This document shows positions 1,691-26,768 of a stretch of 44,963 nt of DNA, one piece after another (the stretch's first letter is position 1; each line of letters opens with the position of its first letter). Below the pieces are notes generated by a model. That model saw nothing but the letters and a program-made list of their open reading frames with translations. It was not told the DNA's origin and ran no database searches. The position numbers and the translations under genes were made by a program. The DNA comes from Escherichia phage BF9: the sequence record NC_073083.1, one strand, 5' to 3'.

Positions 1691-1912
1691 ATGAAAACAT
1701 TAATTGTGATTTGTTCGGTTCTTCTGTCCGGCTGTGCGGTAGAACGTAACAACGGCGATTGCATTACGGTAGCTTACGGTAGCTGCATGTTGCGCTACGT
1801 CGATGGGCAAAAAGTGCCTGCCGGAGATGTGGATATGCGCTTCACTGGCCTGTCTTCGGATGCCGACGGCAATTTCTCAGGCACTGTATCAGTTAAATCA
1901 CGGGAGTGGTAA
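1691..1912 (+). CDS. Small secreted lipoprotein (73 aa); possible Cor/Llp-type superinfection-exclusion protein
   Basis: MKTLIVICSVLLSGC has a signal peptide and lipobox (LSGC). Sits next to the tail fiber/J genes on the opposite strand, as cor and llp do in T1- and T5-like phages. Start is the internal ATG of track ORF 1628..1912. Confidence 0.5.
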   Translation: MKTLIVICSVLLSGCAVERNNGDCITVAYGSCMLRYVDGQKVPAGDVDMRFTGLSSDADGNFSGTVSVKSREW

Positions 1913-1914
1913 TT

Positions 1915-2880
1915 ATGGGCGCTGGAATACTTATCGACTACAACGACGGGCGGCCTGTTATGGCGATAACTGCCGGTCTACGCGCTCCGTCATACTGCAC
2001 TACGTTTGATCAACGCTGCCAGTCAGACAAGACGCTGACCATTAACACCCCGCTAACCCCTGGGTCGGATCTTGTCGTTGCGCTCACGCGCCCGGTCGAA
2101 GTGATTGAGGTATTCGACCAAACGCTGGTTCTTCCAGATCCGTTCTACGTGACGTCGGTACAACGCAACGGGGATAGCGGCATTATTCTACGAGGCGCGG
2201 ACGCGTATAACGCATATAGTGGTCTCCCGCAATGGGCGGGGATAATTATGGAAGTGCTGCCGGTTGGGTCGCGCAATGCGGGCTTACTGGTGGCGAACTC
2301 GACTGACTTCACCGCGATATCGAACGTATCCCGGCTTATGACCTGCCGATATGCGCAGCGCGTGCATGTGAACGACAGTATGCCTTTACCGGTGGGTGGC
2401 ATCCCGTTCGCGCGCTGGGATAACGGCAACGTGTCGGTAGGATTTGATGGCAGTAATATCATCGTCCGCAATTCGTCTTATGGCGGGATCGACGACGTAG
2501 GGGCCGAAGTGGACCTGGATTTGGTTATCTTCAATAACACGCCACCATCTCCGGGGACCGGTATAACCATGACGAACAACCAGGGGCAGGTCACGTTCTC
2601 CACCGTGAATAAGCCGTTTGTTCTCAATTCCGTTATTAATATCGGCACTGGTGGTCAGAATATCGGTAACAGCCTCGTACAGCTTTCATATACCGGCGCG
2701 CTCATTGAGAACAACAGCGGATACAACCACGTGAGAATGAACGGAATACGCATGGCAGGCAACGTGGTTAGCGCGGCACGAAATCGCGTGATTGGTAACT
2801 ACTCACGACAGCAATTCCAGATGCCTAACCGCAACATAACCGCACCCACCCCGTTACTCGTCATCCCTAACATGTATTAA
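1915..2880 (+). CDS. Hypothetical protein (321 aa), Gly/Asn/Thr-rich, probably beta-rich; function unknown
   Basis: Track ORF 1906..2880; ATG at 1915 is preceded by GGGAGTGG. Co-oriented with the lipoprotein gene and followed by a hairpin terminator. Confidence 0.5.
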   Translation: MGAGILIDYNDGRPVMAITAGLRAPSYCTTFDQRCQSDKTLTINTPLTPGSDLVVALTRPVEVIEVFDQTLVLPDPFYVTSVQRNGDSGIILRGADAYNAYSGLPQWAGIIMEVLPVGSRNAGLLVANSTDFTAISNVSRLMTCRYAQRVHVNDSMPLPVGGIPFARWDNGNVSVGFDGSNIIVRNSSYGGIDDVGAEVDLDLVIFNNTPPSPGTGITMTNNQGQVTFSTVNKPFVLNSVINIGTGGQNIGNSLVQLSYTGALIENNSGYNHVRMNGIRMAGNVVSAARNRVIGNYSRQQFQMPNRNITAPTPLLVIPNMY

Positions 2881-2907: not shown

Positions 2908-5900
2908 TTACCACGTCCCAACTTTCACCCTACCTCCTCCAGGTAATGGCACGTTAATGCCGGTTGCGTCGATCTGTACCGACCCGCCGGAGAAACCGAA
3001 GTTACCAGTGGTCGCGAACAAGTTGCCGCGTACCGTTACGTTGTTGAACTCCGCCCAGCCATCCTTCGCGATACGCCAGCCGCTGCTACCTGGATTCCAG
3101 TTATTCGATTGCAGCGTGTCCGTGATCTGTGCGAAGTTGATGGACGCGTTCTTGATGCGCGCCGTGTCGATGTACACCTGACCGCCGTCAACGATAAACG
3201 CAGACGAAAGTGACCCATTCGACGGGTGCATGATGTAGAACTGGTCCGCCTTGAACGCGATGCTGGATTTAACCGCACCGCCTTCCACCACAACTGAAAG
3301 CTGCATACCGGCATCATAGTAAGTCCCGTTATACGTCACGCCAGCATTAAGGCTGTATGTGGCACTACCGCCAGCATGGTTAAACGAAGACGTCATCTTC
3401 TGCTCGATAGCTGCGGACTGCTGACCGAACTGCGCCGCTACCTGGGTCTTGTACTCCGCCAGCGCTCCCGCTACGTCTGCCGTTGCCGTTTGTACCTGCT
3501 GGATGGCAGCTTCCTGTTCCCCGAACTTAGCGGCAACAGTTTGTTGGTACTGGGCGAACGCTTGTTCGTGCGTGCTTTGCGCGGTCTGCAACGTGTGGAT
3601 CGCCGCTTCCGCATCGTCAAGGCGAGTACCGATCAACGTCTCAAGTTGCGCGACCGCCTTGTGGGCATCCGCCGCCACGTTATACGCTACCTTGATTTCT
3701 GCGTAGATCCCCTGGTACTCGGCGCGGGCGTTAAACAATTGCTGTGCGTCCGTGAGCATGGCTTCATAAATGCCTTGCGGCATGGTGTCGATCGCTTCCT
3801 GGAAGCGTTTACCATCCTCTGAAGTCAAGAACTCGTCGTCCAACCCCTTCATATACTCGTCAACTTTGTCACTCACCTGGCCTTCAAACGGGGCTGACCA
3901 GTCCGACAGGTTGCCGATTTTATCCGCTACGCGGGCGCGCAACTGCTGGTAGATCCCGAACTCCAGCGACGTTTGCGCATAGTCCGATCCCGGATATGGG
4001 ACGTTGGTCAAGAACTTCCATTCCGTTTCGCCCCGCTTGCGCACTTCAAGCTCGGTGTAAGAGATATCCGTCGCGGCGTTGTTGTGGTTCCACTTCCACA
4101 AAATTTGGTGAAGGCCCGAAATCGCGTTGGTGATGATAGGCGCGTTAAGCCCGCCGAGACGACCTTCGATCGGCGTGATGGCAGACGACACCCACGGGGA
4201 TGAAATCTCACCCATACCGATTGCGCGGACGCGTGCCTGGTAGTTACCGGAGAACACGTTAGGGATGTGAGCGCCGTTCGATGCCGTGCGAGGGATGTTC
4301 ACCCAGTCGTTACCCCACTGGATTTCCATATTCTGCAAGCTGGTACGTCGCCACTGGATTTCATATACAACGGCATCCTTCACCGGCGGGAAAACAATAT
4401 CCACGTTGGTGATTAGCTGGCCTTGCGATGAAATCTGCGACGGGGTGATGGTCACGGACTCCGGCCCCTTCATTACGCCGTCAGGTACTTGCGTAAAGAT
4501 GCCTGGGTCAAGGCGAGCGCCATTATCAACGGCATCATATTTGCTATCGTTGTACTCGATCCCGCGCACTGAAAAAGTGCTGGTAGAGTCGTCATATTCC
4601 AGGTCGGTGATGCGGAACTTCTGCAACTGGATATCATCGCCATCAACGCAAAACGGCTGGTCTGGAATCGGGTCGGCGTCCAGTGCGGTTTTTAGCGTAA
4701 CCTTGTTGCCGTTGACGCTGGCGATCTCGCGAGTCTCCACATTACCGCTATCGGTGCGTACCAGGAATTTATCGCCAGGGCGGAACGTGATTTCGCTGTC
4801 TGTGTTCAGCACCGTCCGCGTGCCCGGATCTGACAACAGGCGACCGCCGCGTGTCTCGAAGCCGCCAGAAATGTTTGTATCGGCGATCGCTACTACGCTA
4901 CCCGGAATAAAGAATAGTCCTTCCATGCCAACCTTAAAGCTAACTTGCTGGTCAAGCTGGTTGGAGATTAGCGCCCAGTGCCCCCGGCGTTGCGCTTCTG
5001 ATTCACGCGTACAGCCGATCGCCGTTATATCGAGACGGTTAATCTTATGGCGGCGTACCAGTTCGACACGTTGCCCCGTTGCGATGGCATCCTCATAGTG
5101 GTTCTTCGGGTTGCCGTATGCTACCGCGAACGTGGAATAGCGAGTTTTCTGGCTCCCTGACGCGTAGTCGAATCTGCCATCAATAACAGAGGCGTTGGTG
5201 ATAGTGTGCGATACCGCTGCGACCGGCTGGTCACTTACGATATTCAACATCTGGTTGCCCCACCAGGTCATACCGGCAAAGATGGCGGCTAAATCCTTAA
5301 GCACGGTCCAGGCGTCGGTCTGCGACTGGATGTACATATCATTCTTAAATCGGATTTCCTGCCCGCCGTTGCCGTCGCTGACAAGCTGGTCACAGCGCTG
5401 CGCAATCTGGTAGAGCGCGTACCGGTTCAGCATTTGCGGCTTGATCCTACGACCGAGGCCGAAGCGCTCAGTAATACAAATATCGTACCAGTGCCACGCA
5501 GGGTTGTCCGTCCAGGCGCGTTTAAACGTGCCATCCCAGTCGCCCGAATATGTATGATTAATCGGGTCGTAGTTGTTCGGAACCAGCACTTTGCGGCCTT
5601 TGCACTTGATGGACACCCGAGGGATGTTCTGAAACGCTTTAGCGTCGAACTCCACGAACAACAGCGCGGTTAGCGGGTAGCGCAGGCGGGCGTCGATAAT
5701 CTCAGTGATTGATTGCACCTGAATATCGTTCACCACTTTTGCCGATGTGGAATCAGCCGTTGTGCGGTGCACTTCCACGCGCCAGCCAGTGTTAACGTTC
5801 GGCGGTAACTCGATGCGGTGGTCTCGCTCGTACAGCGACATTGTTTTACCAACGGCAGCAAATGTAAACTCGCGCGGATCTGCGTTATCCGTATACACAA

Positions 5901-6354
5901 CGATTTTATAGTCGATGCGCCCGCCTACCAGGTCGCCATTATCTTCGTTGGTGTACAAAGCCGGAATGCCGATTCGAATGCGCACGGCGTCAAGACTTGT
6001 GTCATTAATCTGGCGCACCCACGGCGTGCCGTTTTCCAGTTTTACGCCTACTGTTTGCTCACTTTCCACCGCGGAAAATCCGTGGATTACATCCTGGTGC
6101 TGTGTGCCTGGGCGGAACTCCACGCGCGCGCCGGGGAAGTTTTCCGACAGGTCGGCGTTCTGGATCGGTGTGCCGTCCAGGTATACGCGCTGCCGTAATT
6201 CGTTAGGGTCGGGAATACCTTCGAATTCCCCTTCACCCAGCGCAAGCAAGATGCGGATTTTAGCCAGGGAATGCAGGCTGTCCGGCGTTTCCTGCGGGGT
6301 GTGCTGTTTGCCTCCGCCGCCTTTATGGCCTGTAACGTCGTAGATAATCGTCAT
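2908..6354 (-). CDS. Central tail fiber / host specificity protein (lambda gpJ-like), 1148 aa
   Basis: Size, position after the K and I homologs, and conserved gpJ-type N-terminus MTIIYDVTGHKGGGGK...LLALGEGEFEG. Confidence 0.85.
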   Translation of the reverse strand: MTIIYDVTGHKGGGGKQHTPQETPDSLHSLAKIRILLALGEGEFEGIPDPNELRQRVYLDGTPIQNADLSENFPGARVEFRPGTQHQDVIHGFSAVESEQTVGVKLENGTPWVRQINDTSLDAVRIRIGIPALYTNEDNGDLVGGRIDYKIVVYTDNADPREFTFAAVGKTMSLYERDHRIELPPNVNTGWRVEVHRTTADSTSAKVVNDIQVQSITEIIDARLRYPLTALLFVEFDAKAFQNIPRVSIKCKGRKVLVPNNYDPINHTYSGDWDGTFKRAWTDNPAWHWYDICITERFGLGRRIKPQMLNRYALYQIAQRCDQLVSDGNGGQEIRFKNDMYIQSQTDAWTVLKDLAAIFAGMTWWGNQMLNIVSDQPVAAVSHTITNASVIDGRFDYASGSQKTRYSTFAVAYGNPKNHYEDAIATGQRVELVRRHKINRLDITAIGCTRESEAQRRGHWALISNQLDQQVSFKVGMEGLFFIPGSVVAIADTNISGGFETRGGRLLSDPGTRTVLNTDSEITFRPGDKFLVRTDSGNVETREIASVNGNKVTLKTALDADPIPDQPFCVDGDDIQLQKFRITDLEYDDSTSTFSVRGIEYNDSKYDAVDNGARLDPGIFTQVPDGVMKGPESVTITPSQISSQGQLITNVDIVFPPVKDAVVYEIQWRRTSLQNMEIQWGNDWVNIPRTASNGAHIPNVFSGNYQARVRAIGMGEISSPWVSSAITPIEGRLGGLNAPIITNAISGLHQILWKWNHNNAATDISYTELEVRKRGETEWKFLTNVPYPGSDYAQTSLEFGIYQQLRARVADKIGNLSDWSAPFEGQVSDKVDEYMKGLDDEFLTSEDGKRFQEAIDTMPQGIYEAMLTDAQQLFNARAEYQGIYAEIKVAYNVAADAHKAVAQLETLIGTRLDDAEAAIHTLQTAQSTHEQAFAQYQQTVAAKFGEQEAAIQQVQTATADVAGALAEYKTQVAAQFGQQSAAIEQKMTSSFNHAGGSATYSLNAGVTYNGTYYDAGMQLSVVVEGGAVKSSIAFKADQFYIMHPSNGSLSSAFIVDGGQVYIDTARIKNASINFAQITDTLQSNNWNPGSSGWRIAKDGWAEFNNVTVRGNLFATTGNFGFSGGSVQIDATGINVPLPGGGRVKVGTW

Positions 6355-17612: not shown

Positions 17613-17699
17613 GCTATCCCCCTGGGATTGTGGCAGAGCGGGCCACCCGCTCGACTTCACGCTTCTAATATTATCAGCGATAAAAATAATCGCAAAATT

Positions 17700-17750
17700 C
17701 GCTTGCAATCCGCGTATTGGTTGCACTATATTGGTTGCACACCAACCACG
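17700..17750 (+). promoter_or_regulatory. Promoter with tandem TTGGTTGCA motifs driving the rightward gene inside the head module
   Basis: TTGCAAtccgcgtaTTGGTTGCACTATATTGGTTGCACaccaacc gives TTGCAA-N17-CTATAT. The same 21 bp core (CTATATTGGTTGCACACCAAC) recurs in reverse orientation near 28085. Confidence 0.5.
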
Positions 17751-17761
17751 AGGACACACAA

Positions 17762-18526
17762 ATGAGACTGACTAAAGACATTAAAAACCAGATCCTGGCT
17801 AACATCCTGCGCGACCACGAAATAGCTACCGAAGCCAAATCAATCATGATGGACTCACGCGACCTGGCGTACGCCATTACGCTGGACTGTATGCCGGAAG
17901 GCATTCGCACATTCGCCGAGCTACTCGCGCGCATTGAAGCAATCGGCGATGATCCGTCGCAGATGTACGGCGTCTGTGTATACACCAATAAGGCGACGTA
18001 TAGACATGACGCCGACAACCCATATGGTATAGGCTGCGTTTACGACGCCACTTTCGAAATCAACGCAGGCGGAAACGTCCGTACCGTGTCATTGAGCGGA
18101 GACGGACACCGATTCCGAGTACATCGCGGATACTGGGAGTATAAATACATGAATAAACTGTCTCCCGATCTCGGCGATATTGTGCCAGGGTATGAGGAAA
18201 TTTTGTTAGCGTCAGTGTGCGAAGTCGACGACGACGGGAAAGCGCTGCCGATATATCTTCCGCGCGGTCGAGTAGACTACCCTGCGGACCATGATTTCTG
18301 TAAGCGCCTGGACCGTAACGACAAGGCCCGCCGCGAGTTGCGAGCTAAGTATGACGCGTTCAAACTAACCGTTACCGGCGTGCTGGATATGCACAATACC
18401 GATAAGAAGCTGATCAAGGCGTGGCCTGAAGTGGAACAGTTCATTCCGCACCCTGACAAGCCGAAGTCCACGGCGGTGGCGCTGGACGTGAAGACGCTAA
18501 ACGAGATTTGCGGTATTCCGCGCTAA
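17762..18526 (+). CDS. Hypothetical protein (254 aa) on the opposite strand within the head gene block; accessory (moron-like) gene
   Basis: Internal ATG (MRLTKDIKNQ) of track ORF 17717..18526 with RBS GAGGA; own promoter upstream and terminator downstream; no motif recognised. Confidence 0.6.
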   Translation: MRLTKDIKNQILANILRDHEIATEAKSIMMDSRDLAYAITLDCMPEGIRTFAELLARIEAIGDDPSQMYGVCVYTNKATYRHDADNPYGIGCVYDATFEINAGGNVRTVSLSGDGHRFRVHRGYWEYKYMNKLSPDLGDIVPGYEEILLASVCEVDDDGKALPIYLPRGRVDYPADHDFCKRLDRNDKARRELRAKYDAFKLTVTGVLDMHNTDKKLIKAWPEVEQFIPHPDKPKSTAVALDVKTLNEICGIPR

Positions 18527-18527
18527 C

Positions 18528-18550
18528 AAAAGGGGGCCATCACGGCCCCC
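18528..18550. terminator. Bidirectional intrinsic terminator
   Basis: aaaaGGGGGCCatcacGGCCCCCgaattatttt: GC stem with T-rich tails on both strands. Confidence 0.6.
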
Positions 18551-18779
18551 GAATTATTTTCTGCAACTCCAGCACTTGCGCCCTCAGCTTCGCACCACAT
18601 TCCATATTTTTCACGTCAATCATCAAATCTTCGTCGGGGTCCGCGGACGGGTTATCGAACTTGCACGGCGGTCGCAGTGCCGACTCCGTTAGCGGCATCA
18701 ACGGCACGTTGCTTGATCCGCACGCGCTCAGCATCAAAACTACAATCAGGGCGGTTAGGGCGCGTAACATATTTAACAA
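18540..18779 (-). CDS. o-spanin (Rz1-like outer-membrane lipoprotein)
   Basis: MLNMLRALTALIVVLMLSACGSS has a lipobox; the mature part is Pro-rich with conserved Cys. The gene lies in the +1 frame overlapping the 3' end of the i-spanin gene and extends beyond it. RBS AAGAGG. Confidence 0.7.
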   Translation of the reverse strand: MLNMLRALTALIVVLMLSACGSSNVPLMPLTESALRPPCKFDNPSADPDEDLMIDVKNMECGAKLRAQVLELQKIIRGP

Positions 18780-18981
18780 CCTCTTTCGTGATAGTCCGGT
18801 ATTCTACGTCGCGGGCTTGTTCGGCCTGCACGGAGCGCTCAATAACTTTAGTTTGCTGCCGTTGGGCTTTCGCTTGCGCTTCTTGCGCCGCTCTCGCCTC
18901 AACGCCAGTGCGGTAGGAATCACCCTGCCAGAATCCAACCGCCAGACCTATAACCAGTCCGATCGCCGCGTATTTAATCAC
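18652..18981 (-). CDS. i-spanin (Rz-like)
   Basis: N-terminal transmembrane segment (AAIGLVIGLAVGFW) followed by a Gln/Ala-rich coiled-coil. Start is uncertain: the track uses TTG at 19011; I prefer GTG at about 18981, which has CAGGGGG upstream. Confidence 0.6.
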   Translation of the reverse strand: MIKYAAIGLVIGLAVGFWQGDSYRTGVEARAAQEAQAKAQRQQTKVIERSVQAEQARDVEYRTITKEVVKYVTRPNRPDCSFDAERVRIKQRAVDAANGVGTATAVQVR

Positions 18982-20077
18982 GCCATAGCCCCCTGTTTTT
19001 AAGCTGTGCAATAGTCATCAATTCGCCCGTATCGGTGAACATCTTCGGCACTTTCACGCCTCGCATAATCTGGTCTGCGCGCTGCACCCCATATAATTCC
19101 TCCAGAATATGGCGCGGCTGGCGCTGCACCCATGAGAAGAAATCAGTCTGCGCGTCGACCTGCTCACTCAGCAATCTGCCCGCTTCAGCCTTCAGTGCCG
19201 GACGCTTACCACTGGGCCAATCTTCCATACCTTTGACTTTCCACGTCTCCGTCGAACGGCAGCAATAATGCAGCTTGCCAGGACCAGCGCCATATTGTGA
19301 CCCCGCCACCACTTTCCCGCCGCGCTTTCCTTTGGTGTCGGGAGTAACATCAACTGGATAAAACAGGCGATCGCGTAGCTGGCACATGGGAGAAGTATGC
19401 GTGTCCAATGTAGCCAACCATTGGCGACCTTCGAGAATATCGTCATTAGCTTTTACCATTAATTCGCGGGCGGTTGCCGCATAGTGGTTGACCGCGGACT
19501 TAACAACGCTTGAGATTGCTTGCGCACTACGACCGCCTAGCGCGCGCCTCACGTCCGCAATAATTTCCATAGTCGGCTTGCCCTGGATGAATCCAGCGCG
19601 CACCTGATTGCCGATCTGCGTCCTGGTCCACTCGGAAAGTGAGTCAGGCCATTGCATCATGGTGTTACCCTGGAACGGGTTTTTCATTGCAGTCGCTGCG
19701 ATCTGCGCGCCGGTCACAACACCCACCACCTCGACAGCCGGTACGGCGACCGCTGGCTGGATCGCTGCCGTTAATGTGTCGGCGAGATAATCAGCCTCGG
19801 TGTCTGCGAACTCCTGAAGGCTTTCAGCCAGCGCCTTAAACTCGGTGCGCAGTTCCGTTTTGACGGTCTTGTCGAGTTGCGTTAAAAGTGTGGTAAGTGC
19901 CTTGTTGCTCATGGACTTTTTGCCATCAAGTAACTCGGTCAGCTTACCCAGTAAAGCGGGCCGGAACTTCTCCCACATAGCCAGCACCCTTCGCGCCTGG
20001 TCATTGCTCAGGCGCTGGGTGAAGATGTGACGGCGAATCATTCGATCCGCCATATATTGATTAATTGTCTTCGCCAT
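18974..20077 (-). CDS. Head morphogenesis / minor head protein (phage Mu gpF-like)
   Basis: 367 aa directly downstream of the portal gene; WLATLDTHTSPMC-type region typical of the Mu F family. Confidence 0.7.
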   Translation of the reverse strand: MAKTINQYMADRMIRRHIFTQRLSNDQARRVLAMWEKFRPALLGKLTELLDGKKSMSNKALTTLLTQLDKTVKTELRTEFKALAESLQEFADTEADYLADTLTAAIQPAVAVPAVEVVGVVTGAQIAATAMKNPFQGNTMMQWPDSLSEWTRTQIGNQVRAGFIQGKPTMEIIADVRRALGGRSAQAISSVVKSAVNHYAATARELMVKANDDILEGRQWLATLDTHTSPMCQLRDRLFYPVDVTPDTKGKRGGKVVAGSQYGAGPGKLHYCCRSTETWKVKGMEDWPSGKRPALKAEAGRLLSEQVDAQTDFFSWVQRQPRHILEELYGVQRADQIMRGVKVPKMFTDTGELMTIAQLKNRGLWRD

Positions 20078-21581
20078 TGTCCGCTACCTTGTCCGGGTCT
20101 TCTTCGGTCGATTCTACCGCATCGGGGGACATTTGAGGCAATGGATTCTGATTTCGCAATTCGTCTTCCACCTGCTCGACGGTTTGCGAGTCGTCGATGA
20201 CGCCCTGCGCCATCATCCACTTGATGAAATCAGCCAGGCGGACCGTACCAGTCTGCACACCCGACATCATCGCGGTCATAAGCTGCGCATCAACCGTGAT
20301 TTCGGTGTAGAACTTATTCAGCGTCACACGCTGGTCGGCGGTGTCCCCAGTGAAAAGCTGCACGATTTGCAGCGCACGGTTGAAAGCCTTCTCAACGTTA
20401 CCGGCAATAAGCGACAGGATACTGTTATCAGTCTGCGCATCATAGGCCGCCTCGGTTGCCGTCTTAGGTGCGGTCCCCTTCTCGACCAGGGCTGCGCCCA
20501 GTTTAGCCATTTGCAACTCGCGACGCTCACACAGTGCAACCGACAAGTTGCGCTCCTCCGCCTGGATCAGTTTAGCGTCCATGTTCTGGCCCAGGATAAC
20601 GCCCTTAGTTGCACCGAGGGCAATGCCGCCCTTCAGGTTTTTGTCAGCCCATGATTGAGTCAAGCCCGTTGCTACCAGAGTAGGTTGACCAACGATGTGC
20701 GCAATCTCGGCGACGTCCGCTTCGGCGTTGTAGTGCTTAATGTTGATGGATGCGATATCCGCCAGCGGAGCGGCGTCAGGCGTTGCGTTGTTGTCCACCG
20801 CGCCACACCAGCAAAACGGAAGCTGTGTCAGCGCTTTACCGGCAGCATCCACCAGCGGCACAAGGTCGGTGCGGGTAAATCCACGCGGCAAGTCCATTTG
20901 CACCTCAGACGTGTCCGCGTTATAAAACCAGCGGCGGGCGTGTGCCGCACCGTTAATCATGCGAAGCTCGGTCCAGATTGTTACTTCGTGGTTTGCGAAA
21001 TCGTCCGGGTCTTCGGTGCTGATTTCGTCCGTTTCCTTCAGCACAATTAGCGTATCGACGCCGTGGGTCTGCCGCCAGTTGATGATCTGTTCTGCCGTGT
21101 ACAGGCGGATAAGCGGGCGGTGTGACGCCATCTCGGCGGCTGTCTGCGGCACTACGTTACCAAGTTCATCAAAATGCGCCTGGCGGTCATAGTCGACCAT
21201 AAAGCCAGCACGTCCTGATTGCAGAACTTCAGACATAGCACCGCGCAGGAGTTGCGGCAGCGGCATGCCGCTGCCGTCTACGTCGTCAATCAGGTCAGCC
21301 ATCGCCCCGGAAAGGTCAAGACTTACCGGTTTAGCAAAGGCTACGCCTAACAGCGCGTTAAGTGTGCGGGCGGTGGCGTTCAGGAATACAGCGCGTTGCT
21401 TGTACGCCTTATACCGCGCCCGTGCTTTCGGGTCAGTATTGTCGCCACTGGCGGGATGAGGCAGGTACAAGGGGCCGCACGCCTTCACGGCGCGCTCCCC
21501 TGCTACACAATCGCGGATCATCTTCCACTCTGGCGCGATGCGCGCATAAAGTGGGTGCTGGTTGTCAACGTTAACGGTCAT
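20061..21581 (-). CDS. Portal protein
   Basis: 506 aa between the TerL and head morphogenesis genes; acidic C-terminus. Confidence 0.7.
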   Translation of the reverse strand: MTVNVDNQHPLYARIAPEWKMIRDCVAGERAVKACGPLYLPHPASGDNTDPKARARYKAYKQRAVFLNATARTLNALLGVAFAKPVSLDLSGAMADLIDDVDGSGMPLPQLLRGAMSEVLQSGRAGFMVDYDRQAHFDELGNVVPQTAAEMASHRPLIRLYTAEQIINWRQTHGVDTLIVLKETDEISTEDPDDFANHEVTIWTELRMINGAAHARRWFYNADTSEVQMDLPRGFTRTDLVPLVDAAGKALTQLPFCWCGAVDNNATPDAAPLADIASINIKHYNAEADVAEIAHIVGQPTLVATGLTQSWADKNLKGGIALGATKGVILGQNMDAKLIQAEERNLSVALCERRELQMAKLGAALVEKGTAPKTATEAAYDAQTDNSILSLIAGNVEKAFNRALQIVQLFTGDTADQRVTLNKFYTEITVDAQLMTAMMSGVQTGTVRLADFIKWMMAQGVIDDSQTVEQVEDELRNQNPLPQMSPDAVESTEEDPDKVADNGEDN

Positions 21582-21591
21582 GGTCGTTTCC

Positions 21592-22977
21592 TTAGTAGAA
21601 GTCTACAGTTGGAACAACGGCGATTGGGCGAATCACTGGGAACAGGTGCGCAATTGGATAGCCCGCGGCATCGTTCATGTGGTCCACACCGGCGGTTTTA
21701 TCCGGCTCGCCTTTCTTCAGGTCGTAAACCTGCTGTTCCAGACATTTCGCTAGTGTAGGGCATTTATCCAGGTTGACAAAATACTGGCGCACGCCCTTCG
21801 AGTTGCACATCATCGTATTCATCGCGATCAATCGGTCTTTCACAGGTGGGTTAACACTGTCATACTCCACCTCGAAGCCCGCGTCTTCCAGTTGCGCTAT
21901 ATCGGACGATGATGCGTTGACAGTCTTGCGAGACTTGCCGCTGCTATCCGGGTAAACGACAACACGACCGGCAGCACAATGATCGGGGTATCGCTCCTCG
22001 ATCGCCTCAATCATAGCCGGGGTGTCAAACAGGTCCACAAATTCATCCACTGCGTGGATCTCGTCGCGGAACTCCTTGTTTTCGGTGATGCGCTGCCGTC
22101 TGACGTACACGACCGCCGCCATCTTCGTGACGTTAAAGTCCATACCGATAATCAGCGTGTCTTCCGGCTGAACTTCTTCGGTGCTGGCGTTCTCCTCGCG
22201 GTTAAACATCTTGTATACAGCGCCCGACGTAAGGTTGACAAACAGGCCGTTCAGGTACGCATCAATCAGGTTAGACGGGTACTGACTGCGCAGCGTGTCG
22301 ATAAAGTCTGCCGGTAGGTGGTGGTTATCGGTAGTCTTCGCCCGGATCAAACGTTTCTGGCTATCCTTCTCCACTTCGAAAATCTGGTACATCGCCCGGA
22401 AGCCTTCCGGCGTGGATACGATGACGAACTGGCGTACCAAGCCCGCACGAAGACGACCAAGCAATTTGTGATAAGCCGCCATCGCTACGTCTTGCTTCGT
22501 GGTGTCGAACTCGTCGGCAACAATCCACGCGGCGTTGACCCCGATCAGGCGGGTATAGTTCTCCATTGATTCACAGATAACGCGGGTCCATTTGCCTTTC
22601 ACCAGCACGCTATAAATCTTGTCCTGCTTATTGAACTTCCACCGGAAGCCCGCCTCGTCGAAAGCCTTCTCCAGTTCCGGGTACATGATCTTAACCAGGA
22701 GGGGAATAGTCGGTTCTGTAACGATGCCATCATGACCGGGGTTCAGGGTTAAAAGCTGGATGACCTTACGTGCCGCAACCCATGACTTACCGCCACCGAA
22801 GCCGGAGCACAGGCCGAGGATTTTAGTCTTCGTGTCGCGCAGTAGTTCCACCTGGTGCGGAAGGCAATCAGGTTGATACAGGCGGACGGCCTGCGCAACG
22901 CGTGTCGGGCGCGGCGGTCGGTTTCTCTTTGCGATCGCTCGTTCAAGGGCGCGATGTTCTGCCGCATAGTTACGCAT
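21592..22977 (-). CDS. Terminase large subunit
   Basis: 461 aa; P-loop (LCSGFGGGKSW) near the N-terminus and an acidic nuclease-like C-terminal half; follows the TerS gene. Confidence 0.8.
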   Translation of the reverse strand: MRNYAAEHRALERAIAKRNRPPRPTRVAQAVRLYQPDCLPHQVELLRDTKTKILGLCSGFGGGKSWVAARKVIQLLTLNPGHDGIVTEPTIPLLVKIMYPELEKAFDEAGFRWKFNKQDKIYSVLVKGKWTRVICESMENYTRLIGVNAAWIVADEFDTTKQDVAMAAYHKLLGRLRAGLVRQFVIVSTPEGFRAMYQIFEVEKDSQKRLIRAKTTDNHHLPADFIDTLRSQYPSNLIDAYLNGLFVNLTSGAVYKMFNREENASTEEVQPEDTLIIGMDFNVTKMAAVVYVRRQRITENKEFRDEIHAVDEFVDLFDTPAMIEAIEERYPDHCAAGRVVVYPDSSGKSRKTVNASSSDIAQLEDAGFEVEYDSVNPPVKDRLIAMNTMMCNSKGVRQYFVNLDKCPTLAKCLEQQVYDLKKGEPDKTAGVDHMNDAAGYPIAHLFPVIRPIAVVPTVDFY

Positions 22978-23528
22978 TAATCACCCTGACCTTTGCCGGT
23001 AGGTTCCACAACGACGTCGCCGTTATCATCTTCGTCGTCATCCAGCGGTACATCGTCCCGGACGCCGTGGTTTGCTTTAAGCAGGAAGGTAGCGAAGCCC
23101 GCCGCGATGGTCACGCCGCCAGCTTCCATCAGGAAGGTTTTCTGTAGCTCCATAGCGTCAGCCATCGCCTCGGCGAACTCCTCATGTGCGCGCGCCCAGC
23201 GATAAAGGCAGGCGACGCCTACGCCAATCTTTGCGGCGAAGCGACCGAAGGTAGGCATCATGTTGCGGGGGATTACTTGCGCAGCACCCTTGTCGGAGTA
23301 GTTAACTTGCCAGGCTACGGCATCGGCAAAATAGCGACGAAGCTGATCACAATAAACGGTGCGGTAGTCGGTTGGGCGTCCACATTTGCCACCCCTACGG
23401 CGCTTGCCGTATTCGATCTCCGGTCCGAGATTGGTGTGTTCTGTTTGCTCGCCTGGTTTACGGCGCGGGGTAACTGCTACTCGTCCGTCCAGTTTAGCGC
23501 GACGGCCCTTAACTTTGATTTCTGCCAT
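22977..23528 (-). CDS. Terminase small subunit (putative)
   Basis: Basic N-terminus, acidic C-terminal tail, abuts the TerL start; start taken as the internal ATG (MAEIKVKGRR) of track ORF 22977..23549. Confidence 0.55.
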   Translation of the reverse strand: MAEIKVKGRRAKLDGRVAVTPRRKPGEQTEHTNLGPEIEYGKRRRGGKCGRPTDYRTVYCDQLRRYFADAVAWQVNYSDKGAAQVIPRNMMPTFGRFAAKIGVGVACLYRWARAHEEFAEAMADAMELQKTFLMEAGGVTIAAGFATFLLKANHGVRDDVPLDDDEDDNGDVVVEPTGKGQGD

Positions 23529-23644
23529 GATATAAGCCCTTTTGTGCATATGCGCCGACCATCGGCAACATAGGAGACGGCCCTGCCATCTAAGGGGATT
23601 ATAACAGGCACAAAAAAGCCCACCAAATCGGCGGGCTAGGAGGG

Positions 23645-23857
23645 TTAAAAGGGGCGACCGTAGTATCGGGTTAACATGCTTTTTACTTCGCTTATAGCGC
23701 CTTCTGTGTAGCGTATTTGCGATAGTATCTCGATCCGCTCGCTGATAGACATGCCTATCGCCGCTGCCGTTCGTTCGAATCGGCGCAAGCCTTCGAGTTG
23801 TTTGCGTAGCTCTTTCAGGCGTGCGGCCTGCGTGCTCATGAATACTTGTCTAATCAT
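23645..23857 (-). CDS. Hypothetical small protein (70 aa)
   Basis: Track ORF whose end overlaps the upstream gene by 4 bp, suggesting translational coupling. Confidence 0.4.
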   Translation of the reverse strand: MIRQVFMSTQAARLKELRKQLEGLRRFERTAAAIGMSISERIEILSQIRYTEGAISEVKSMLTRYYGRPF

Positions 23858-24996
23858 TTCAACATTTCCGGGCTAATGGTTAAGCGCGCTACTTCGCCGT
23901 AGTTGGCGCTGTAGGTAATGACATTGGCGCTACGACCGGACATCCAACCGCCGCGGCTGGCATATGCGTCTTTCGCCGCGAGTGTCCGGTGCTGCTCAAC
24001 AATCATGTTGCGGGATTCTACAATCTTCTGGTGGTGCAAGTGGCCTATATGCGCGTAGCTGTACTCGCTGGCCCCGAAAGCCTGTCTGAATTTAGAAATC
24101 ATGACGGTTTCGATAGCATCGAAGCGCGCTTTGTGCCCGTGGTGGAAGAACAGCGTTGTTTTACCGTGTTGCACCATTTTGTACACATCCGGGGATGTAT
24201 CCACATCGACGCGCGGCTCGTTATCATACAGAGTATTGAACATTTCGGCCAGCCAAATCATGCCAGACTCGTCATGATTCCCCTGGACGATTAGAAGTTT
24301 GACTTTGTGGTGTTTTTGCAGCGCCAGGTCTACCACGTTGCGCACCATGCGAATCATGTAGCGGACCAGCTTCTGGTAACGGGTATCCGCGTCCAGTACG
24401 TGACCGCTGGCAGGTGTGACGGCATCGAGGCTATCAAAGTGGGCCATATCCCCGAGGATATTGATAACGGCAGTGCCTGCGTCCGGTGCGCGTGCGAAGG
24501 CTTCGACAAACCAGCGGTAGAACAGGTCTTCGGCAATCGCCATATCCCAATCCTCGCCAGTCTCCTCGCCCCAGGCCAACATGCCCAGGTGGAAGTCGGA
24601 CACGGTGTACAGGTTGAGTAGGTCAAGTGCCTGGATCGGGACTGGTGGGGCGCTTACTGGTGCTGCCGGAGTGATTTCGCTGTTCATACCTTCGACAACG
24701 GCGCGCATTGCTTCAAGCTGGCGCTCCTTGTCCTGCTCAGTGATAACCCACGACATGACTTCTTCGCCATTGCCGCGCACCAGGGCGGATACGCGCTTAA
24801 CGCCGAAGCCATCGGCAACGCGCTTACGGATTACGGCATCGTTACCGTGACCAATACCTTTCTTCGACAGGCGGGCTTTGCGCATGTAGACATTTCGAAG
24901 AGCAATTCCGTACTTCTTCGCAATCTCTTTCGCGGTAGTGCCGGATTGCAACTCGGTGATCAATTGCTCGTCGGTGATTTTAGTTTGCGGGTGCAT
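23854..24996 (-). CDS. Calcineurin-like metallophosphoesterase with N-terminal helix-turn-helix domain
   Basis: N-terminal TAKEIAKKYGIALRNVYMR looks like an HTH; metallophosphatase motifs GDMAHFD, GNHDE and GHLHH are present. Confidence 0.6.
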   Translation of the reverse strand: MHPQTKITDEQLITELQSGTTAKEIAKKYGIALRNVYMRKARLSKKGIGHGNDAVIRKRVADGFGVKRVSALVRGNGEEVMSWVITEQDKERQLEAMRAVVEGMNSEITPAAPVSAPPVPIQALDLLNLYTVSDFHLGMLAWGEETGEDWDMAIAEDLFYRWFVEAFARAPDAGTAVINILGDMAHFDSLDAVTPASGHVLDADTRYQKLVRYMIRMVRNVVDLALQKHHKVKLLIVQGNHDESGMIWLAEMFNTLYDNEPRVDVDTSPDVYKMVQHGKTTLFFHHGHKARFDAIETVMISKFRQAFGASEYSYAHIGHLHHQKIVESRNMIVEQHRTLAAKDAYASRGGWMSGRSANVITYSANYGEVARLTISPEMLK

Positions 24997-25233
24997 ATTA
25001 ATTCACTTCCAGATTATGGGACCGAGGACAATATACCACGGTCCCTATTGCGGCGGGTTATAGCAATTCGCAAATAACCATGCCGATAAAAGCCGCGGTG
25101 GTCCAGATCGCTAATACCCAAATATCTTTACGTGCCATCTTGATTACTCCTCCAGTTGATTGGTTGCAGTATGGCCCCTGTGTTGGTTGCGAGTCAAGCA
25201 ATAAAAAGCCCGGTTAATTCCGGGCTTAATTGT

Positions 25234-25401
25234 TTACGCTGCGGGGCCAGATTCCTCCTGCGGTGGTGGGCTTGGCAGCTTCGCATCGAAGACCCCGGCG
25301 TGGTTGATAGAGTCCGCGATGATAGCGCGTGCGCCTGGGTCTTCGGTTTTAGCCAGTGCGGCAAGCGCGTCCGCATTATGATCAAGAATACTTTTTAACA
25401 T
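25234..25401 (-). CDS. Hypothetical small protein (55 aa), not in ORF track
   Basis: ATG 16 nt after the endolysin stop with RBS GAGGTGA; followed by a hairpin and T-run terminator at about 25203..25230 on the minus strand. Confidence 0.4.
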   Translation of the reverse strand: MLKSILDHNADALAALAKTEDPGARAIIADSINHAGVFDAKLPSPPPQEESGPAA

Positions 25402-25417: not shown

Positions 25418-25909
25418 TTATGCAGCGTTTCGACCGATTCGTTCGGCAACGTCCCACTGCTTACCATCAAACAACGCCTGTCTGCCGATTGCACGGCGTA
25501 CCAGACCCTTAAGCACTTCGCCGCCTTGCTTGCGGAACTGCGGCAGCGTAGCACGGACCTTCGCCCAGTCGCCCAAGCGCACCGCGTCGTCGAAGTCATT
25601 GGCAATATGGTCCGGTACGATCGGACCTTGACCTGCATTGATAACCAGGTCCACCAGCGCGTCGAATTGCGCCTGGTTAATGCTCGGATGTGCGTATTTG
25701 TTCACCCAATCTTCCGCATACGCCACATCGCGCTTGAGTAGCTCCAGCGCTTCCGCGCGGGTAATGCTTCGCGGCGGGTTAGTGCCGGTGTGACCATAAC
25801 CCCAGGTGTACAGGCCGCGGGCCTGCTCTTTCTTAGTCGCGAAATACGGCACTGGGCTAAACGACTCCCATGCTGCCGTAAATCTTAGACCGTTGTCACT
25901 GAATCGCAT
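25418..25909 (-). CDS. Endolysin (T4 e-type lysozyme / GH24-like muramidase)
   Basis: 163 aa; N-terminal catalytic region ...WESFSPVPYF...GLYTWGYGHTG matches the lysozyme E/D/T pattern; directly downstream of two membrane-protein genes. Confidence 0.8.
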   Translation of the reverse strand: MRFSDNGLRFTAAWESFSPVPYFATKKEQARGLYTWGYGHTGTNPPRSITRAEALELLKRDVAYAEDWVNKYAHPSINQAQFDALVDLVINAGQGPIVPDHIANDFDDAVRLGDWAKVRATLPQFRKQGGEVLKGLVRRAIGRQALFDGKQWDVAERIGRNAA

Positions 25910-26141
25910 GTTTTACCCCATTCAAAACAGCATTACGCAGCGTGCGCAATGCAAACAACCAGATTAACGCGGTCCAGGTGGTGTCAGATACGTCTCCTGT
26001 TTGCAACAATCCGACAACGCAGATCATCGCCGTTAGCAGATATAACACCCGGCCTAAAATGCCATCCTGGACGGACGGCGCATACACGTTAAACAGGGAC
26101 GAAGCCCCTATGATAACAAACAACAGGACGGAGATAATCAT
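25896..26141 (-). CDS. Small membrane protein (holin/antiholin candidate), 81 aa
   Basis: Two or three hydrophobic segments; lies between the holin-like gene and the endolysin gene with overlapping stop/start. Confidence 0.5.
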   Translation of the reverse strand: MIISVLLFVIIGASSLFNVYAPSVQDGILGRVLYLLTAMICVVGLLQTGDVSDTTWTALIWLFALRTLRNAVLNGVKHAIQ

Positions 26142-26428
26142 TTTGCGCCCCCCGGAAGTCGGAACGACTCAATAGTCTCCCTGATCCGGGCGGCTATTGG
26201 CATCCAGAAGATTGCAGTTACGAAGCCCAAACCGGCGACAGTGCGCTCGCCCGATAAACCAGCCCACTCGGCGATAGCTGGCGCACCAAATATGGCACAC
26301 AGGAAGCCAACTACGATATATAAAACGAAGTTTAGCGGCCCTTTCGTAGCCTCGCCATGAATGCGTGCGCCTACGAAGCCGCCAGCCAGACATGCGAGGG
26401 CAAATAGCCACTCGTTTATCTTATCCAT
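26138..26428 (-). CDS. Holin candidate (96 aa membrane protein)
   Basis: Three hydrophobic helices and a charged C-terminus; first gene of the lysis cassette. Confidence 0.55.
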   Translation of the reverse strand: MDKINEWLFALACLAGGFVGARIHGEATKGPLNFVLYIVVGFLCAIFGAPAIAEWAGLSGERTVAGLGFVTAIFWMPIAARIRETIESFRLPGGAK

Positions 26429-26435
26429 AAAAAAG

Positions 26436-26466
26436 TCCCAGTAAGTTTTAGCTCACTGGGACTATA
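26436..26466 (-). terminator. Hairpin plus T-run immediately upstream of the holin gene
   Basis: Minus strand reads AGTCCCAGTGAGCTAAAACTTACTGGGACT followed by TTTTTT. Confidence 0.45.
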
Positions 26467-26480
26467 TCACGCTTGCGTAT

Positions 26481-26768
26481 TTAATCGAAAATGGACCACT
26501 TGCCGACGCCTTTCCACTCCCATCCTTCCGATCGGACGGCCTCGAACATCCGGCCCCCTATCATATCCCGATACCATAGCCACCACATGCGCAACCTGGT
26601 CGGGTGCTCCGTGATGCCACGGCGCTTGTATATCTGAAACGTCATGCGGGTAATGCTGGCGGCTTCCGCCGCAGGCCAAATCAGGAATACCCACACCAAC
26701 AGCGCCAGCACCGTAACAAAGAGTGTCGCGCACCCCAATCCAAACCAATATATCAAATCGTGTAGCAT
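26481..26768 (-). CDS. Hypothetical membrane protein (95 aa)
   Basis: Track ORF with an N-terminal transmembrane segment (LGCATLFVTVLALLVWVFLIW); preferred over the overlapping 26467..26811 frame. Confidence 0.45.
   Translation of the reverse strand: MLHDLIYWFGLGCATLFVTVLALLVWVFLIWPAAEAASITRMTFQIYKRRGITEHPTRLRMWWLWYRDMIGGRMFEAVRSEGWEWKGVGKWSIFD

Follow-up and report, generated by a model that had tools for sequence, protein, structure and literature searches.

A predicted overlapped spanin gene pair in the head module of a Dhillonvirus phage, apart from its holin and endolysin genes

The gene pair and its genomic site

The window, i.e., the whole stretch of 44,963 nt that was analyzed, belongs to a HK578-like E. 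coli phage (Dhillonvirus). Its genes were assigned to families by Pfam (E<=0.1) and PHROG profile matches, and annotated phage records together with 22 viral contigs served as comparison material. Two open reading frames, 18652..19011 and 18540..18779, are present on the minus strand between a gene of family phrog_241 and a convergent plus-strand gene (17717..18526; Pfam Nmad5, E=1.7e-54). This agrees with the first-pass annotation, which had placed an i-spanin/o-spanin pair between the head-morphogenesis gene and a rightward accessory gene. The putative o-spanin gene lies in the +1 frame relative to the putative i-spanin gene, overlaps it by 119 nt and runs 112 nt beyond its stop codon; the overlapped architecture described earlier is thus found in all its parts. 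The features of the locus and of the lysis cassette are given in Table 1.

Table 1. Predicted genes and regulatory features, with positions in the window
Feature	Position	Strand	Description
Bidirectional terminator-like hairpin	18528..18550	both	GGGGGCC GTGA/TCAC GGCCCCC, then TTTT
o-spanin gene	18540..18770	-	76 aa, ATG start; lipoprotein, Rz-like spanin families
i-spanin gene	18652..18981	-	109 aa, GTG start; phrog_2536 Rz-like spanin, E=3.4e-36
Head-morphogenesis gene	18974..20077	-	phrog_241, E=1.9e-116
Portal	20061-21581	-	PHROG match
terL	21592-22977	-	PHROG match
terS	22977-23549	-	PHROG match
Terminator-like hairpin + T6, then extended -10 candidate TGTTATAAT (23606-23598)	23598..23637	-	upstream of terS
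Endolysin	25418..25909	-	163 aa; lysozyme family PF00959, E=3.4e-21; phrog_7
Holin 2 or antiholin candidate	25896..26141	-	81 aa; phrog_2508 holin, E=5.7e-27
Holin 1	26138..26428	-	96 aa; phrog_2359 holin, E=1.5e-31; three hydrophobic segments
Hairpin + T6 + extended -10 candidate	26429..26469	-	41-nt element; abuts holin ATG

The start of the i-spanin gene had been left ambiguous between TTG 19011 and a GTG near 18981. Across 18 relatives, the GTG at 18981 and its GGGGG Shine-Dalgarno sequence (18993-18989) do not vary, but the TTG is missing in two of them (L015 and L018) and was consequently rejected. With GTG 18981 as start, the gene pair spans 18540..18981. The overlap with the upstream gene that had been noted stands: the head-morphogenesis stop overlaps the GTG by 8 nt (GTGATTAA), and this overlap is conserved in relatives.

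In the putative i-spanin, residues 1-18 constitute the sole hydrophobic segment (mean hydropathy 1.95), taken as an N-terminal transmembrane helix of approximate bounds. It is followed by 85-90 polar residues, among which Ala, Gln, Arg and Glu are abundant, and the single cysteine, Cys80, falls into this predicted periplasmic domain. A single-sequence AlphaFold2 model of low confidence (mean pLDDT 59.9) places helices at residues 5-72 and 84-97, joined by a linker around RPNRPDC, and hints weakly that the domain may be mainly helical. It resembles the two-helix periplasmic domain predicted in the literature for i-spanins of the EP23-to-SO-1 subfamily (PMC6139136).

The partner protein matches two Rz-like spanin families of PHROG, phrog_5672 (E=1.1e-26) and phrog_1267 (E=1.7e-11). 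Its signal sequence MLRALTALIVVLMLSAC-GSS contains the lipobox LSAC within VVLMLSAC, with Cys17 as the lipobox cysteine and Gly at +2, so that the lipobox claimed earlier as LMLSAC is a canonical one. The mature protein would comprise 60 aa, is proline-rich (7 Pro) and carries Cys36 and Cys58; both proteins have periplasmic cysteines (Cys80 in the one, Cys36 and Cys58 in the other) available for predicted intermolecular disulfides. Hydrophobic windows of the o-spanin are limited to its N-terminus. A unimolecular spanin of the T1 gp11 type was considered as well and rejected, based on this hydropathy profile and on a lipobox scan of the window that delivered no other candidate except 1691-1912.

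In the gene run terS-terL-portal-head morphogenesis-i-spanin-o-spanin, the order of which is identical in all Dhillonvirus loci compared, the spanin genes are the final two cistrons. Terminator-like hairpins flank this run on either side, at 23637-23617 and 18550-18532. Within it, from terS to the o-spanin gene, the terminator scan detected no strong minus-strand terminator-like site, the weak calls having 4-5 G-C pairs and poor T-runs and lying inside coding sequence. From this we infer that terS through o-spanin form one transcription unit. Its predicted end, and that of the convergent nmad5 gene, is the bidirectional hairpin (-18.2 kcal/mol, z=-2.4), which holds the o-spanin stop codon in its loop and is labelled 'terminator' in CS16 and PTXU06.

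The endolysin stop and the i-spanin start lie 6437 nt apart, close to the 6.5 kb of the first-pass annotation. Family matches (phrog_2359, phrog_2508, PF00959) and hydropathy also agree with its view of two membrane proteins and an endolysin at 25418..26428. The second holin or antiholin candidate shows 2-3 hydrophobic segments by hydropathy, and the endolysin is a soluble protein in which hydropathy revealed neither a SAR (signal-anchor-release) segment nor any other transmembrane segment. Holins and endolysin probably constitute a separate unit, 6.4 kb upstream of the spanins. A different spanin-like pair next to the endolysin had been named as the finding that would contradict the proposed pair. 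Family matches, hydropathy and a lipobox scan through all six frames of the window gave no spanin candidate there, so the proposal holds on this point; the lipobox scan returned the o-spanin frame and an unrelated lipoprotein at 1691..1912 only. Two small proteins of this region were rejected as spanins: a 55-aa protein after the endolysin (phrog_11068) is devoid of membrane or lipoprotein signals, and a 47-aa ORF at 25058-25201 has no family match.

Relatives and family placement

No relative examined has a disrupted spanin frame. The +1 overlap, the lipobox cysteine and the periplasmic cysteines are kept along with both frames in 18 Dhillonvirus loci, Jerseyvirus Ent1, Kagunavirus K1G and three lambdoid-type contigs. 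Identity of the i-spanin is 94% to SSL-2009a and 91% to EP23, falling to 40% for K1G and 39% for Ent1, and that of the o-spanin is 50% to K1G and 43% to Ent1. All four phages are listed in the 'Jersey' family (Kongari 2018), an overlapped spanin family in which HK578, EP23 and SSL-2009a have been placed (Kongari et al., 2018, PMC6139136). Its shorter EP23-to-SO-1 subfamily includes HK578, JL1, SSL-2009a and EK99P-1 (PMC6139136). We found no substantive difference between this subfamily and the pair described here: the +1 overlap, two conserved o-spanin cysteines and the site after the head-morphogenesis gene are the same, and the low-confidence model suggests that the two-helix periplasmic domain of the i-spanin may be so as well. 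The i-spanin is 109 aa long here vs 102 aa in some relatives, where the shorter C-terminus leaves an overlap of 98 instead of 119 nt.

Dhillonvirus genomes in which the spanin pair is already annotated share ~95% identity with the window. Public records of Bas84, Opt212, PaulFeyerabend and slur05 carry i-spanin or o-spanin labels; the i-spanin gene is termed 'i-spanin' in Bas84, and relatives carry the o-spanin gene under the name 'Rz-like spanin' or 'putative o-spanin'. Since public records annotate the arrangement and the spanin literature describes it, spanins split from holin and endolysin are already known and ordinary in Dhillonvirus, and the novelty implied by the first-pass annotation is not supported.

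Among the Guernseyvirinae, homologous spanins are found in Jerseyvirus Ent1 (gp07/gp08), Kagunavirus K1G (ORF5/6) and phage Schulenberg, which occupy the same syntenic slot, flanked by head morphogenesis on one side and scaffold/major capsid on the other, and likewise lie away from holin and endolysin. For Schulenberg, the separation of the spanin pair from holin and endolysin is stated in the 2019 genome announcement (PMC6763661). Ent1 differs in that a head-decoration gene, a terminator and ~300 nt lie between its head-morphogenesis gene and the spanins, which consequently lack the 8-nt overlap or any coupling through it. Its i-spanin is longer, too, as is the overlap of the two frames (155 nt).

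With lambda Rz/Rz1 the pair shares the functional class, i.e., an N-terminally anchored i-spanin together with a lipoprotein of the outer membrane whose gene lies in the +1 frame. In contrast, BLASTP revealed no similarity to Rz and Rz1 (E=4.1 and E=8.1), and the lambda proteins belong to other PHROG families (phrog_13 and phrog_3198). Neither protein of the pair matches a Pfam family at E<=0.1, and thus nothing in Pfam ties them to the lambda-type families. Membership in the lambda-type Rz/Rz1 sequence families was therefore rejected, the functional class being retained. The architectures differ as well: Rz1 is wholly embedded in Rz, and the lambda pair directly follows S and R on one late transcript. 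In T4, too, the spanin genes PseT.3/PseT.2 are unlinked from those of holin (t) and endolysin (e) (PMC6139136), a precedent that differs from the present case by its separated architecture, by belonging to another family and by its location outside the head module.

Function of the pair

Based on homology, topology and context, we propose with a probability of about 90% that the two frames encode an overlapped two-component spanin of the Dhillonvirus (HK578-like) branch of the 'Jersey' family. PHROG families, topology, conservation of both frames and the cassette of the lambdoid contig L022 all support the core of the earlier reading, an overlapped spanin pair in the head module and apart from the holin/endolysin cassette. 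It is yet conceivable, though in our view highly improbable, that the pair has no role in lysis and represents a superinfection-exclusion or otherwise membrane-modifying pair, or a head-assembly accessory, its place in the head module being fortuitous. Among phage lipoproteins encoded near structural genes, exclusion factors are frequent, a second lipoprotein candidate of this kind is present at 1691-1912, and the pair resides within the packaging/head operon and not beside the endolysin. Besides, no experimental test of any Jersey-family spanin, neither complementation of lambda Rz/Rz1 nor outer-membrane disruption, was found in the published literature searched. However, homologues of both proteins (39% and 35% identity) directly follow holin-holin-endolysin in L022, a cassette with a Q-like antiterminator upstream, and the PHROG families matched here are themselves spanin families. 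Furthermore, the phage would otherwise be devoid of any spanin according to the lipobox scan, and both the +1 overlapped layout and the conserved periplasmic cysteines are spanin hallmarks (PMC6139136).

If the pair is a spanin, the N-terminal helix of the i-spanin would hold it in the inner membrane, with a mostly helical domain reaching into the periplasm. The o-spanin would be lipidated at Cys17 and subsequently sorted to the outer membrane, because its +2 residue is Gly and not Asp. Following established spanin biology, the C-terminal parts of both proteins would bind each other, disulfide-linked complexes would cross the periplasm, and after the endolysin has stripped the peptidoglycan these complexes would fuse inner and outer membranes. 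Judged from the sequence, the 8-nt overlap probably couples translation of the i-spanin to the head-morphogenesis gene. The spanins should need the same late timing as holin and endolysin, though not the same transcript; the split site would be tolerable, since spanins would build up harmlessly until the holin triggers.

Hairpins and promoter-like motifs at the holin gene and terS

The first-pass annotation had noted a hairpin plus T-run (26436..26466) directly upstream of the holin gene. We could confirm this structure at 26463-26434, with a perfect 12-bp stem of which 6 pairs are G-C, followed by T6 (minimum free energy -22.9 kcal/mol, z=-5.9 vs shuffles). It is kept in 10 relatives, and L018 shows a compensatory C:G pair insertion. 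The 5' arm is overlapped by a conserved extended -10 candidate, TGATATAGT (26469-26461), and the 3' arm contains a Shine-Dalgarno-like GGGA motif. A related element upstream of terS, where the hairpin occupies 23637-23617, is conserved in relatives including the divergent L018 (TGATATAAT). The pattern TGNTATAVT has two matches in the 45-kb window, both on the coding strand and immediately upstream of the holin gene and terS; since 2.04 would be expected by chance, only their positions are suggestive. Both copies are kept in relatives, again including L018, where the flanks differ. A further candidate for a phage-specific promoter motif, GTGATATAGTCCC, was dropped, as 13 matches with <=3 mismatches vs 8.0 expected are not a significant enrichment.

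How these elements might act can be envisioned in two ways. The hairpin might be an intrinsic terminator that gates the lysis genes by read-through, as the first-pass annotation had suggested; these genes would then depend wholly on regulated read-through of transcripts coming from the replication-gene operon upstream. The perfect stem with its T6 and low z-score fits this idea, as do conservation and the compensatory insertion in L018. In addition, the T-run adjoins the holin ATG with zero nucleotides in between, and thus a promoter downstream of the hairpin is impossible. However, no antiterminator was detected among the nine genes checked (six on the minus strand, four of these upstream of the lysis genes), and the conserved extended -10 candidate overlaps the 5' arm; we rate regulated read-through at odds short of even. 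Alternatively, a terminator with an embedded promoter might be present. Upstream transcripts would stop at the hairpin, and TGATATAGT could start transcripts inside it, within the 5' arm. Such transcripts would be unable to form the hairpin, hence would not terminate, and their GGGA ribosome-binding motif would stay unpaired. A promoter of similar type, TGTTATAAT-CCC, located after the terminator 23637-23617, would drive the terS-to-spanin operon, and the likeness of both promoters would co-time the split lysis genes. This scenario agrees with the position of the only two TGNTATAVT matches directly upstream of the holin gene and terS and with their conservation up to the divergent L018. Nevertheless, the number of matches equals chance expectation, the -35 regions are poor, and motif conservation is weak evidence as the intergenic regions are conserved overall; we thus regard the embedded promoter as a possibility with odds short of even. 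That similar promoters of the extended -10 type (TGnTATAnT-CCC), each at a terminator and the holin-side one starting inside the hairpin, indeed set a common timing for the two lysis units, holin-holin-endolysin and terS-to-spanin, appears rather doubtful.

The value of the present analysis lies mainly in annotation, with the i-spanin start fixed at GTG 18981. The phage possesses a complete predicted set of holin, endolysin and spanin genes, which is useful to know when phages of this kind are to be engineered or evaluated as therapeutics. The split arrangement is a textbook-level reminder that a phage can do without clustering its lysis genes, T4 and the Guernseyvirinae being precedents. Of some value is the control of lysis timing by the holin-proximal hairpin and the promoter-like motif overlapping it, on which no transcript data were found in the published literature searched. 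If the co-timing scenario were true, one 41-nt element would halt early transcripts, give rise to lysis transcripts free of the hairpin and expose the ribosome-binding site of the holin gene.

Architecture of the spanin locus

Positions 18300-19300 matched 156 GenBank phage records (megablast), 142 of them with a query coverage of at least 80% and nearly all with 90-95% identity or slightly above. Since these records stem almost exclusively from HK578-like siphophages of Escherichia/Shigella (genus Dhillonvirus), among them vB_Eco_Maverick, slur05, Bas84, mckay and Opt212, the window is a Dhillonvirus genome. Its minus strand carries the structural, packaging, lysis and adjoining replication genes as far as about 31.2 kb. 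The first-pass annotation had proposed an overlapping spanin pair between the head-morphogenesis gene and a rightward accessory gene, and these flanks were identified as the phrog_241 gene and nmad5. Both ORFs were found as described, the second lying in the +1 frame, encoding a lipobox and extending past the first stop.

Genes and ORFs in and around the spanin and lysis loci
Feature	Coordinates	Strand	Matches and remarks
i-spanin	18652-18981	-	109 aa
o-spanin	18540-18770	-	76 aa
head-morphogenesis gene	18974-20077	-	phrog_241, E=1.9e-116; upstream of i-spanin gene
nmad5	17717-18526	+	Pfam PF18757 Nmad5, E=1.7e-54; 3' of spanin pair, opposite strand
terS	22977-23549	-	first gene of terS-to-o-spanin run
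exonuclease-like gene	23854-24996	-	phrog_704
55-aa ORF	25234-25401	-	phrog_11068; last gene of holin-endolysin unit; proline-rich C-terminus
endolysin	25418-25909	-	PF00959, lysozyme family; soluble, no signal-anchor segment
second holin-family protein	25896-26141	-	phrog_2508
holin	26138-26428	-	phrog_2359; three hydrophobic segments
95-aa protein	26481-26768	-	phrog_2531; long N-terminal hydrophobic stretch, residues 5-39
73-aa lipoprotein	1691-1912	+	MKTLIVICSVLLSGC..., phrog_4281
324-aa 'membrane protein' moron	1906-2880	+	phrog_1265

Within the second ORF (18540-18779), the gene begins with the ATG at 18770, so that the two genes overlap by 119 nt and the o-spanin gene continues 112 nt beyond the i-spanin stop. 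The longer ORF (18652-19011) may begin at TTG 19011 or GTG 18981, the ambiguity recorded earlier; an alignment of 18 Dhillonvirus sequences, window included, settled it. GTG 18981 and at least four G's 7 nt upstream of it (GGGGG in the window) are invariant in all 18, while TTG 19011 is altered in L015 (TCG) and in L018, a divergent relative. The start is GTG 18981, and the resulting 330-nt gene agrees exactly with the annotation of Bas84 and Opt212. This GTG overlaps the head-morphogenesis stop by 8 nt (GTGATTAA), which suggests translational coupling of the i-spanin to the upstream gene.

The i-spanin comprises one hydrophobic segment (residues 1-18), beyond which it is rich in Ala, Gln, Arg and Glu, with Cys80 as sole cysteine. 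The o-spanin starts with MLRALTALIVVLMLSAC-GSS and displays a positively charged N-terminal region, a hydrophobic core and the lipobox LSAC with Cys17 and Gly at +2; its mature form of 60 residues contains 7 prolines and two more cysteines.

The o-spanin and scaffold genes are separated by a variable slot. No Nmad5 match was obtained in the loci L007, L012, L015 and L016, and pairwise diversity reaches 0.28 in the 78 nt just past the o-spanin stop. Point mutants in Dhillonvirus Nmad5 escape the Tmn defence system (PMC11846954). A strong hairpin lacking a T-run (GAGCGGG-TGG-CCCGCTC, 17634-17650, minus strand) lies in the scaffold-gene 5' leader, about 20 nt ahead of the Shine-Dalgarno sequence.

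Spanin identity and known relatives

Both proteins matched 'Rz-like spanin' families, the i-spanin phrog_2536 (E=3.4e-36) and the o-spanin phrog_5672 (E=1.1e-26) and phrog_1267 (E=1.7e-11). In a scan of all six frames of the window, only the o-spanin and the unrelated 73-aa lipoprotein combined a signal-peptide-like N-terminus with a lipobox. The genes of this lipoprotein and of the moron adjoin the central tail fibre J gene (2908-6354) in opposite orientation and could represent a superinfection-exclusion locus.

We compared the region in 17 related Dhillonvirus loci, in Ent1 (Jerseyvirus) and K1G (Kagunavirus) and in three more distant viral contigs. Throughout, both reading frames are open and the +1 overlap is kept. 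No cysteine is lost either: the lipobox Cys, both periplasmic cysteines of the o-spanin (in PPC and ExC motifs) and the only cysteine of the i-spanin occur in all of them. In the lambdoid-type contig L022, a pair (39% and 35% identity, same PHROGs) directly follows holin-holin-endolysin and is flanked by a Q-like antiterminator on the upstream side and terS/terL on the downstream side. This is a classic lambdoid lysis cassette, and it provides the strongest contextual evidence for spanin identity. L023, another distant relative, carries an i-spanin-like gene about 1 kb past an endolysin gene, with an opposite-strand HNH endonuclease gene in between. Neither protein of the window has a Pfam match or pairwise similarity to lambda Rz and Rz1. 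This is no surprise, given that spanins comprise many sequence families unrelated to one another (PMC6139136). By sequence, the pair appears to belong to the spanin functional class, outside the lambda families.

The split arrangement is already known. The classical example of spanin genes that are not linked is T4 (PMC6139136), and the 'Jersey' family of overlapped two-component spanins includes both components of HK578, JL1, EP23, SSL-2009a, SO-1 and EK99P-1, with the shorter EP23-to-SO-1 subfamily analysed in Figure 5 of that study (Kongari et al. 2018, PMC6139136). The i-spanin of the window is 94% identical to that of SSL-2009a and 91% to that of EP23. A single-sequence AlphaFold2 model of low confidence (pLDDT 60), with helices 5-72 and 84-97 and an RPNRPDC linker, agrees with the two-helix organisation published for the EP23-to-SO-1 subfamily. 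The pair is annotated as 'i-spanin' and 'Rz-like spanin' in Bas84 and as 'i-spanin' and 'o-spanin' in PaulFeyerabend; Opt212 lists a 'putative o-spanin', and RefSeq slur05 a spanin pair. The paper on vB_EcoS_P78 assigns the holins to genes 31 and 32, the endolysin to gene 33 and an Rz-like spanin to gene 40. K1G and Ent1 carry homologous spanins at the same site, between head morphogenesis and scaffold/major capsid, those of K1G being annotated 'putative spanin' and 'overlapping gene'. Since i-spanin relatives occur in 668 phage records (tblastn), the family is large. Taken together, the architecture noticed earlier is confirmed and its interpretation as a spanin pair is supported.

In four Dhillonvirus relatives (L006, L014, L016, L018), the i-spanin measures 102 aa and ends in a different and shorter C-terminus, so that the gene overlap shrinks from 119 to 98 nt; the extreme i-spanin C-terminus is evidently dispensable or variable. 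Between Dhillonvirus and Guernseyvirinae (L003, L004), spanins share 39-50% identity, whereas the flanking portal and head-morphogenesis proteins share 24-30%. The L022 pair is about equally similar to the window spanins (35-39%), whereas within Dhillonvirus, diversity (pi) is higher in the spanin region, at 0.11, than in the neighbouring head gene, at 0.067. Such comparisons hint that the pair may be horizontally exchanged.

The holin-endolysin unit and its hairpin

Two membrane proteins and an endolysin had been placed at 25418..26428, and the phrog_2359, phrog_2508 and PF00959 matches lie there. The i-spanin start lies 6437 nt from the endolysin stop. No spanin-like product was found beside the endolysin of the window, the 55-aa ORF product having neither hydrophobic segment nor lipobox; thus, the assignment of the distant pair stands. 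Holins, endolysin and 55-aa ORF form a separate short unit ending at a bidirectional terminator-like hairpin (25227-25206). The 95-aa protein gene, just upstream of the holin and its hairpin, is kept in all Dhillonvirus loci, and its product might be lysis-related. Two loci, L005 and L010, lack a match to the exonuclease-like gene that separates the lysis unit from terS; its position, between two terminators, is thus another variable slot.

The hairpin plus T-run reported immediately upstream of the holin gene was recovered as a perfect 12-bp stem (26463-26434) with a 6-nt loop (-22.9 kcal/mol, z=-5.9 vs shuffles), followed by six T's that run directly into the holin ATG. It is kept in 10/10 relatives whose sequence includes the region, and in the most divergent, L018, a compensating C:G pair has been added to the stem, with the T-run again adjoining the holin ATG. 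Therefore, the structure is real.

Two roles for it are about equally likely. The hairpin may act as terminator, with the lysis genes expressed by read-through, as the first-pass annotation had proposed; the lack of room for a promoter between T-run and ATG fits this idea. However, a conserved sequence, GTGATATAGT, overlaps the 5' arm, within which TGATATAGT fits the extended -10 consensus TGnTATAAT, and a promoter may instead be embedded in the hairpin. TGNTATAVT matches the 45-kb window only twice, both times on the minus strand and followed by CCC: at 26461-26469, immediately upstream of the holin gene on its coding strand, and at 23606-23598 (TGTTATAAT), directly after the terminator preceding terS. 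Both -10 motifs are kept in relatives, the latter even in L018, where the flanking sequence differs. Two matches equal the chance expectation (2.04), and therefore only their positions are suggestive. Transcription from the holin-proximal motif, were it a promoter, would begin inside the 5' arm; such transcripts would lack the hairpin and escape termination, leaving the GGGA motif of the 3' arm free for ribosome binding.

Expression and proposed function of the spanins

The genes terS, terL, portal, head morphogenesis, i-spanin and o-spanin form one unbroken run, tightly packed or overlapping, between terminator-like hairpins at 23637-23617 and 18550-18532. The latter is bidirectional, is shared with the convergent nmad5 and holds the o-spanin stop codon in its loop. 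In lambda, the inner membrane houses the i-spanin and the outer membrane the lipidated o-spanin; the two proteins connect through the periplasm in disulfide-linked complexes and fuse both membranes after the endolysin has degraded the intervening peptidoglycan (PMC6139136, references therein). Homology, topology and context suggest that the pair studied here would act likewise. The spanins would be made together with the packaging and head proteins, which fits their biology, because spanins are inert until the holin triggers.
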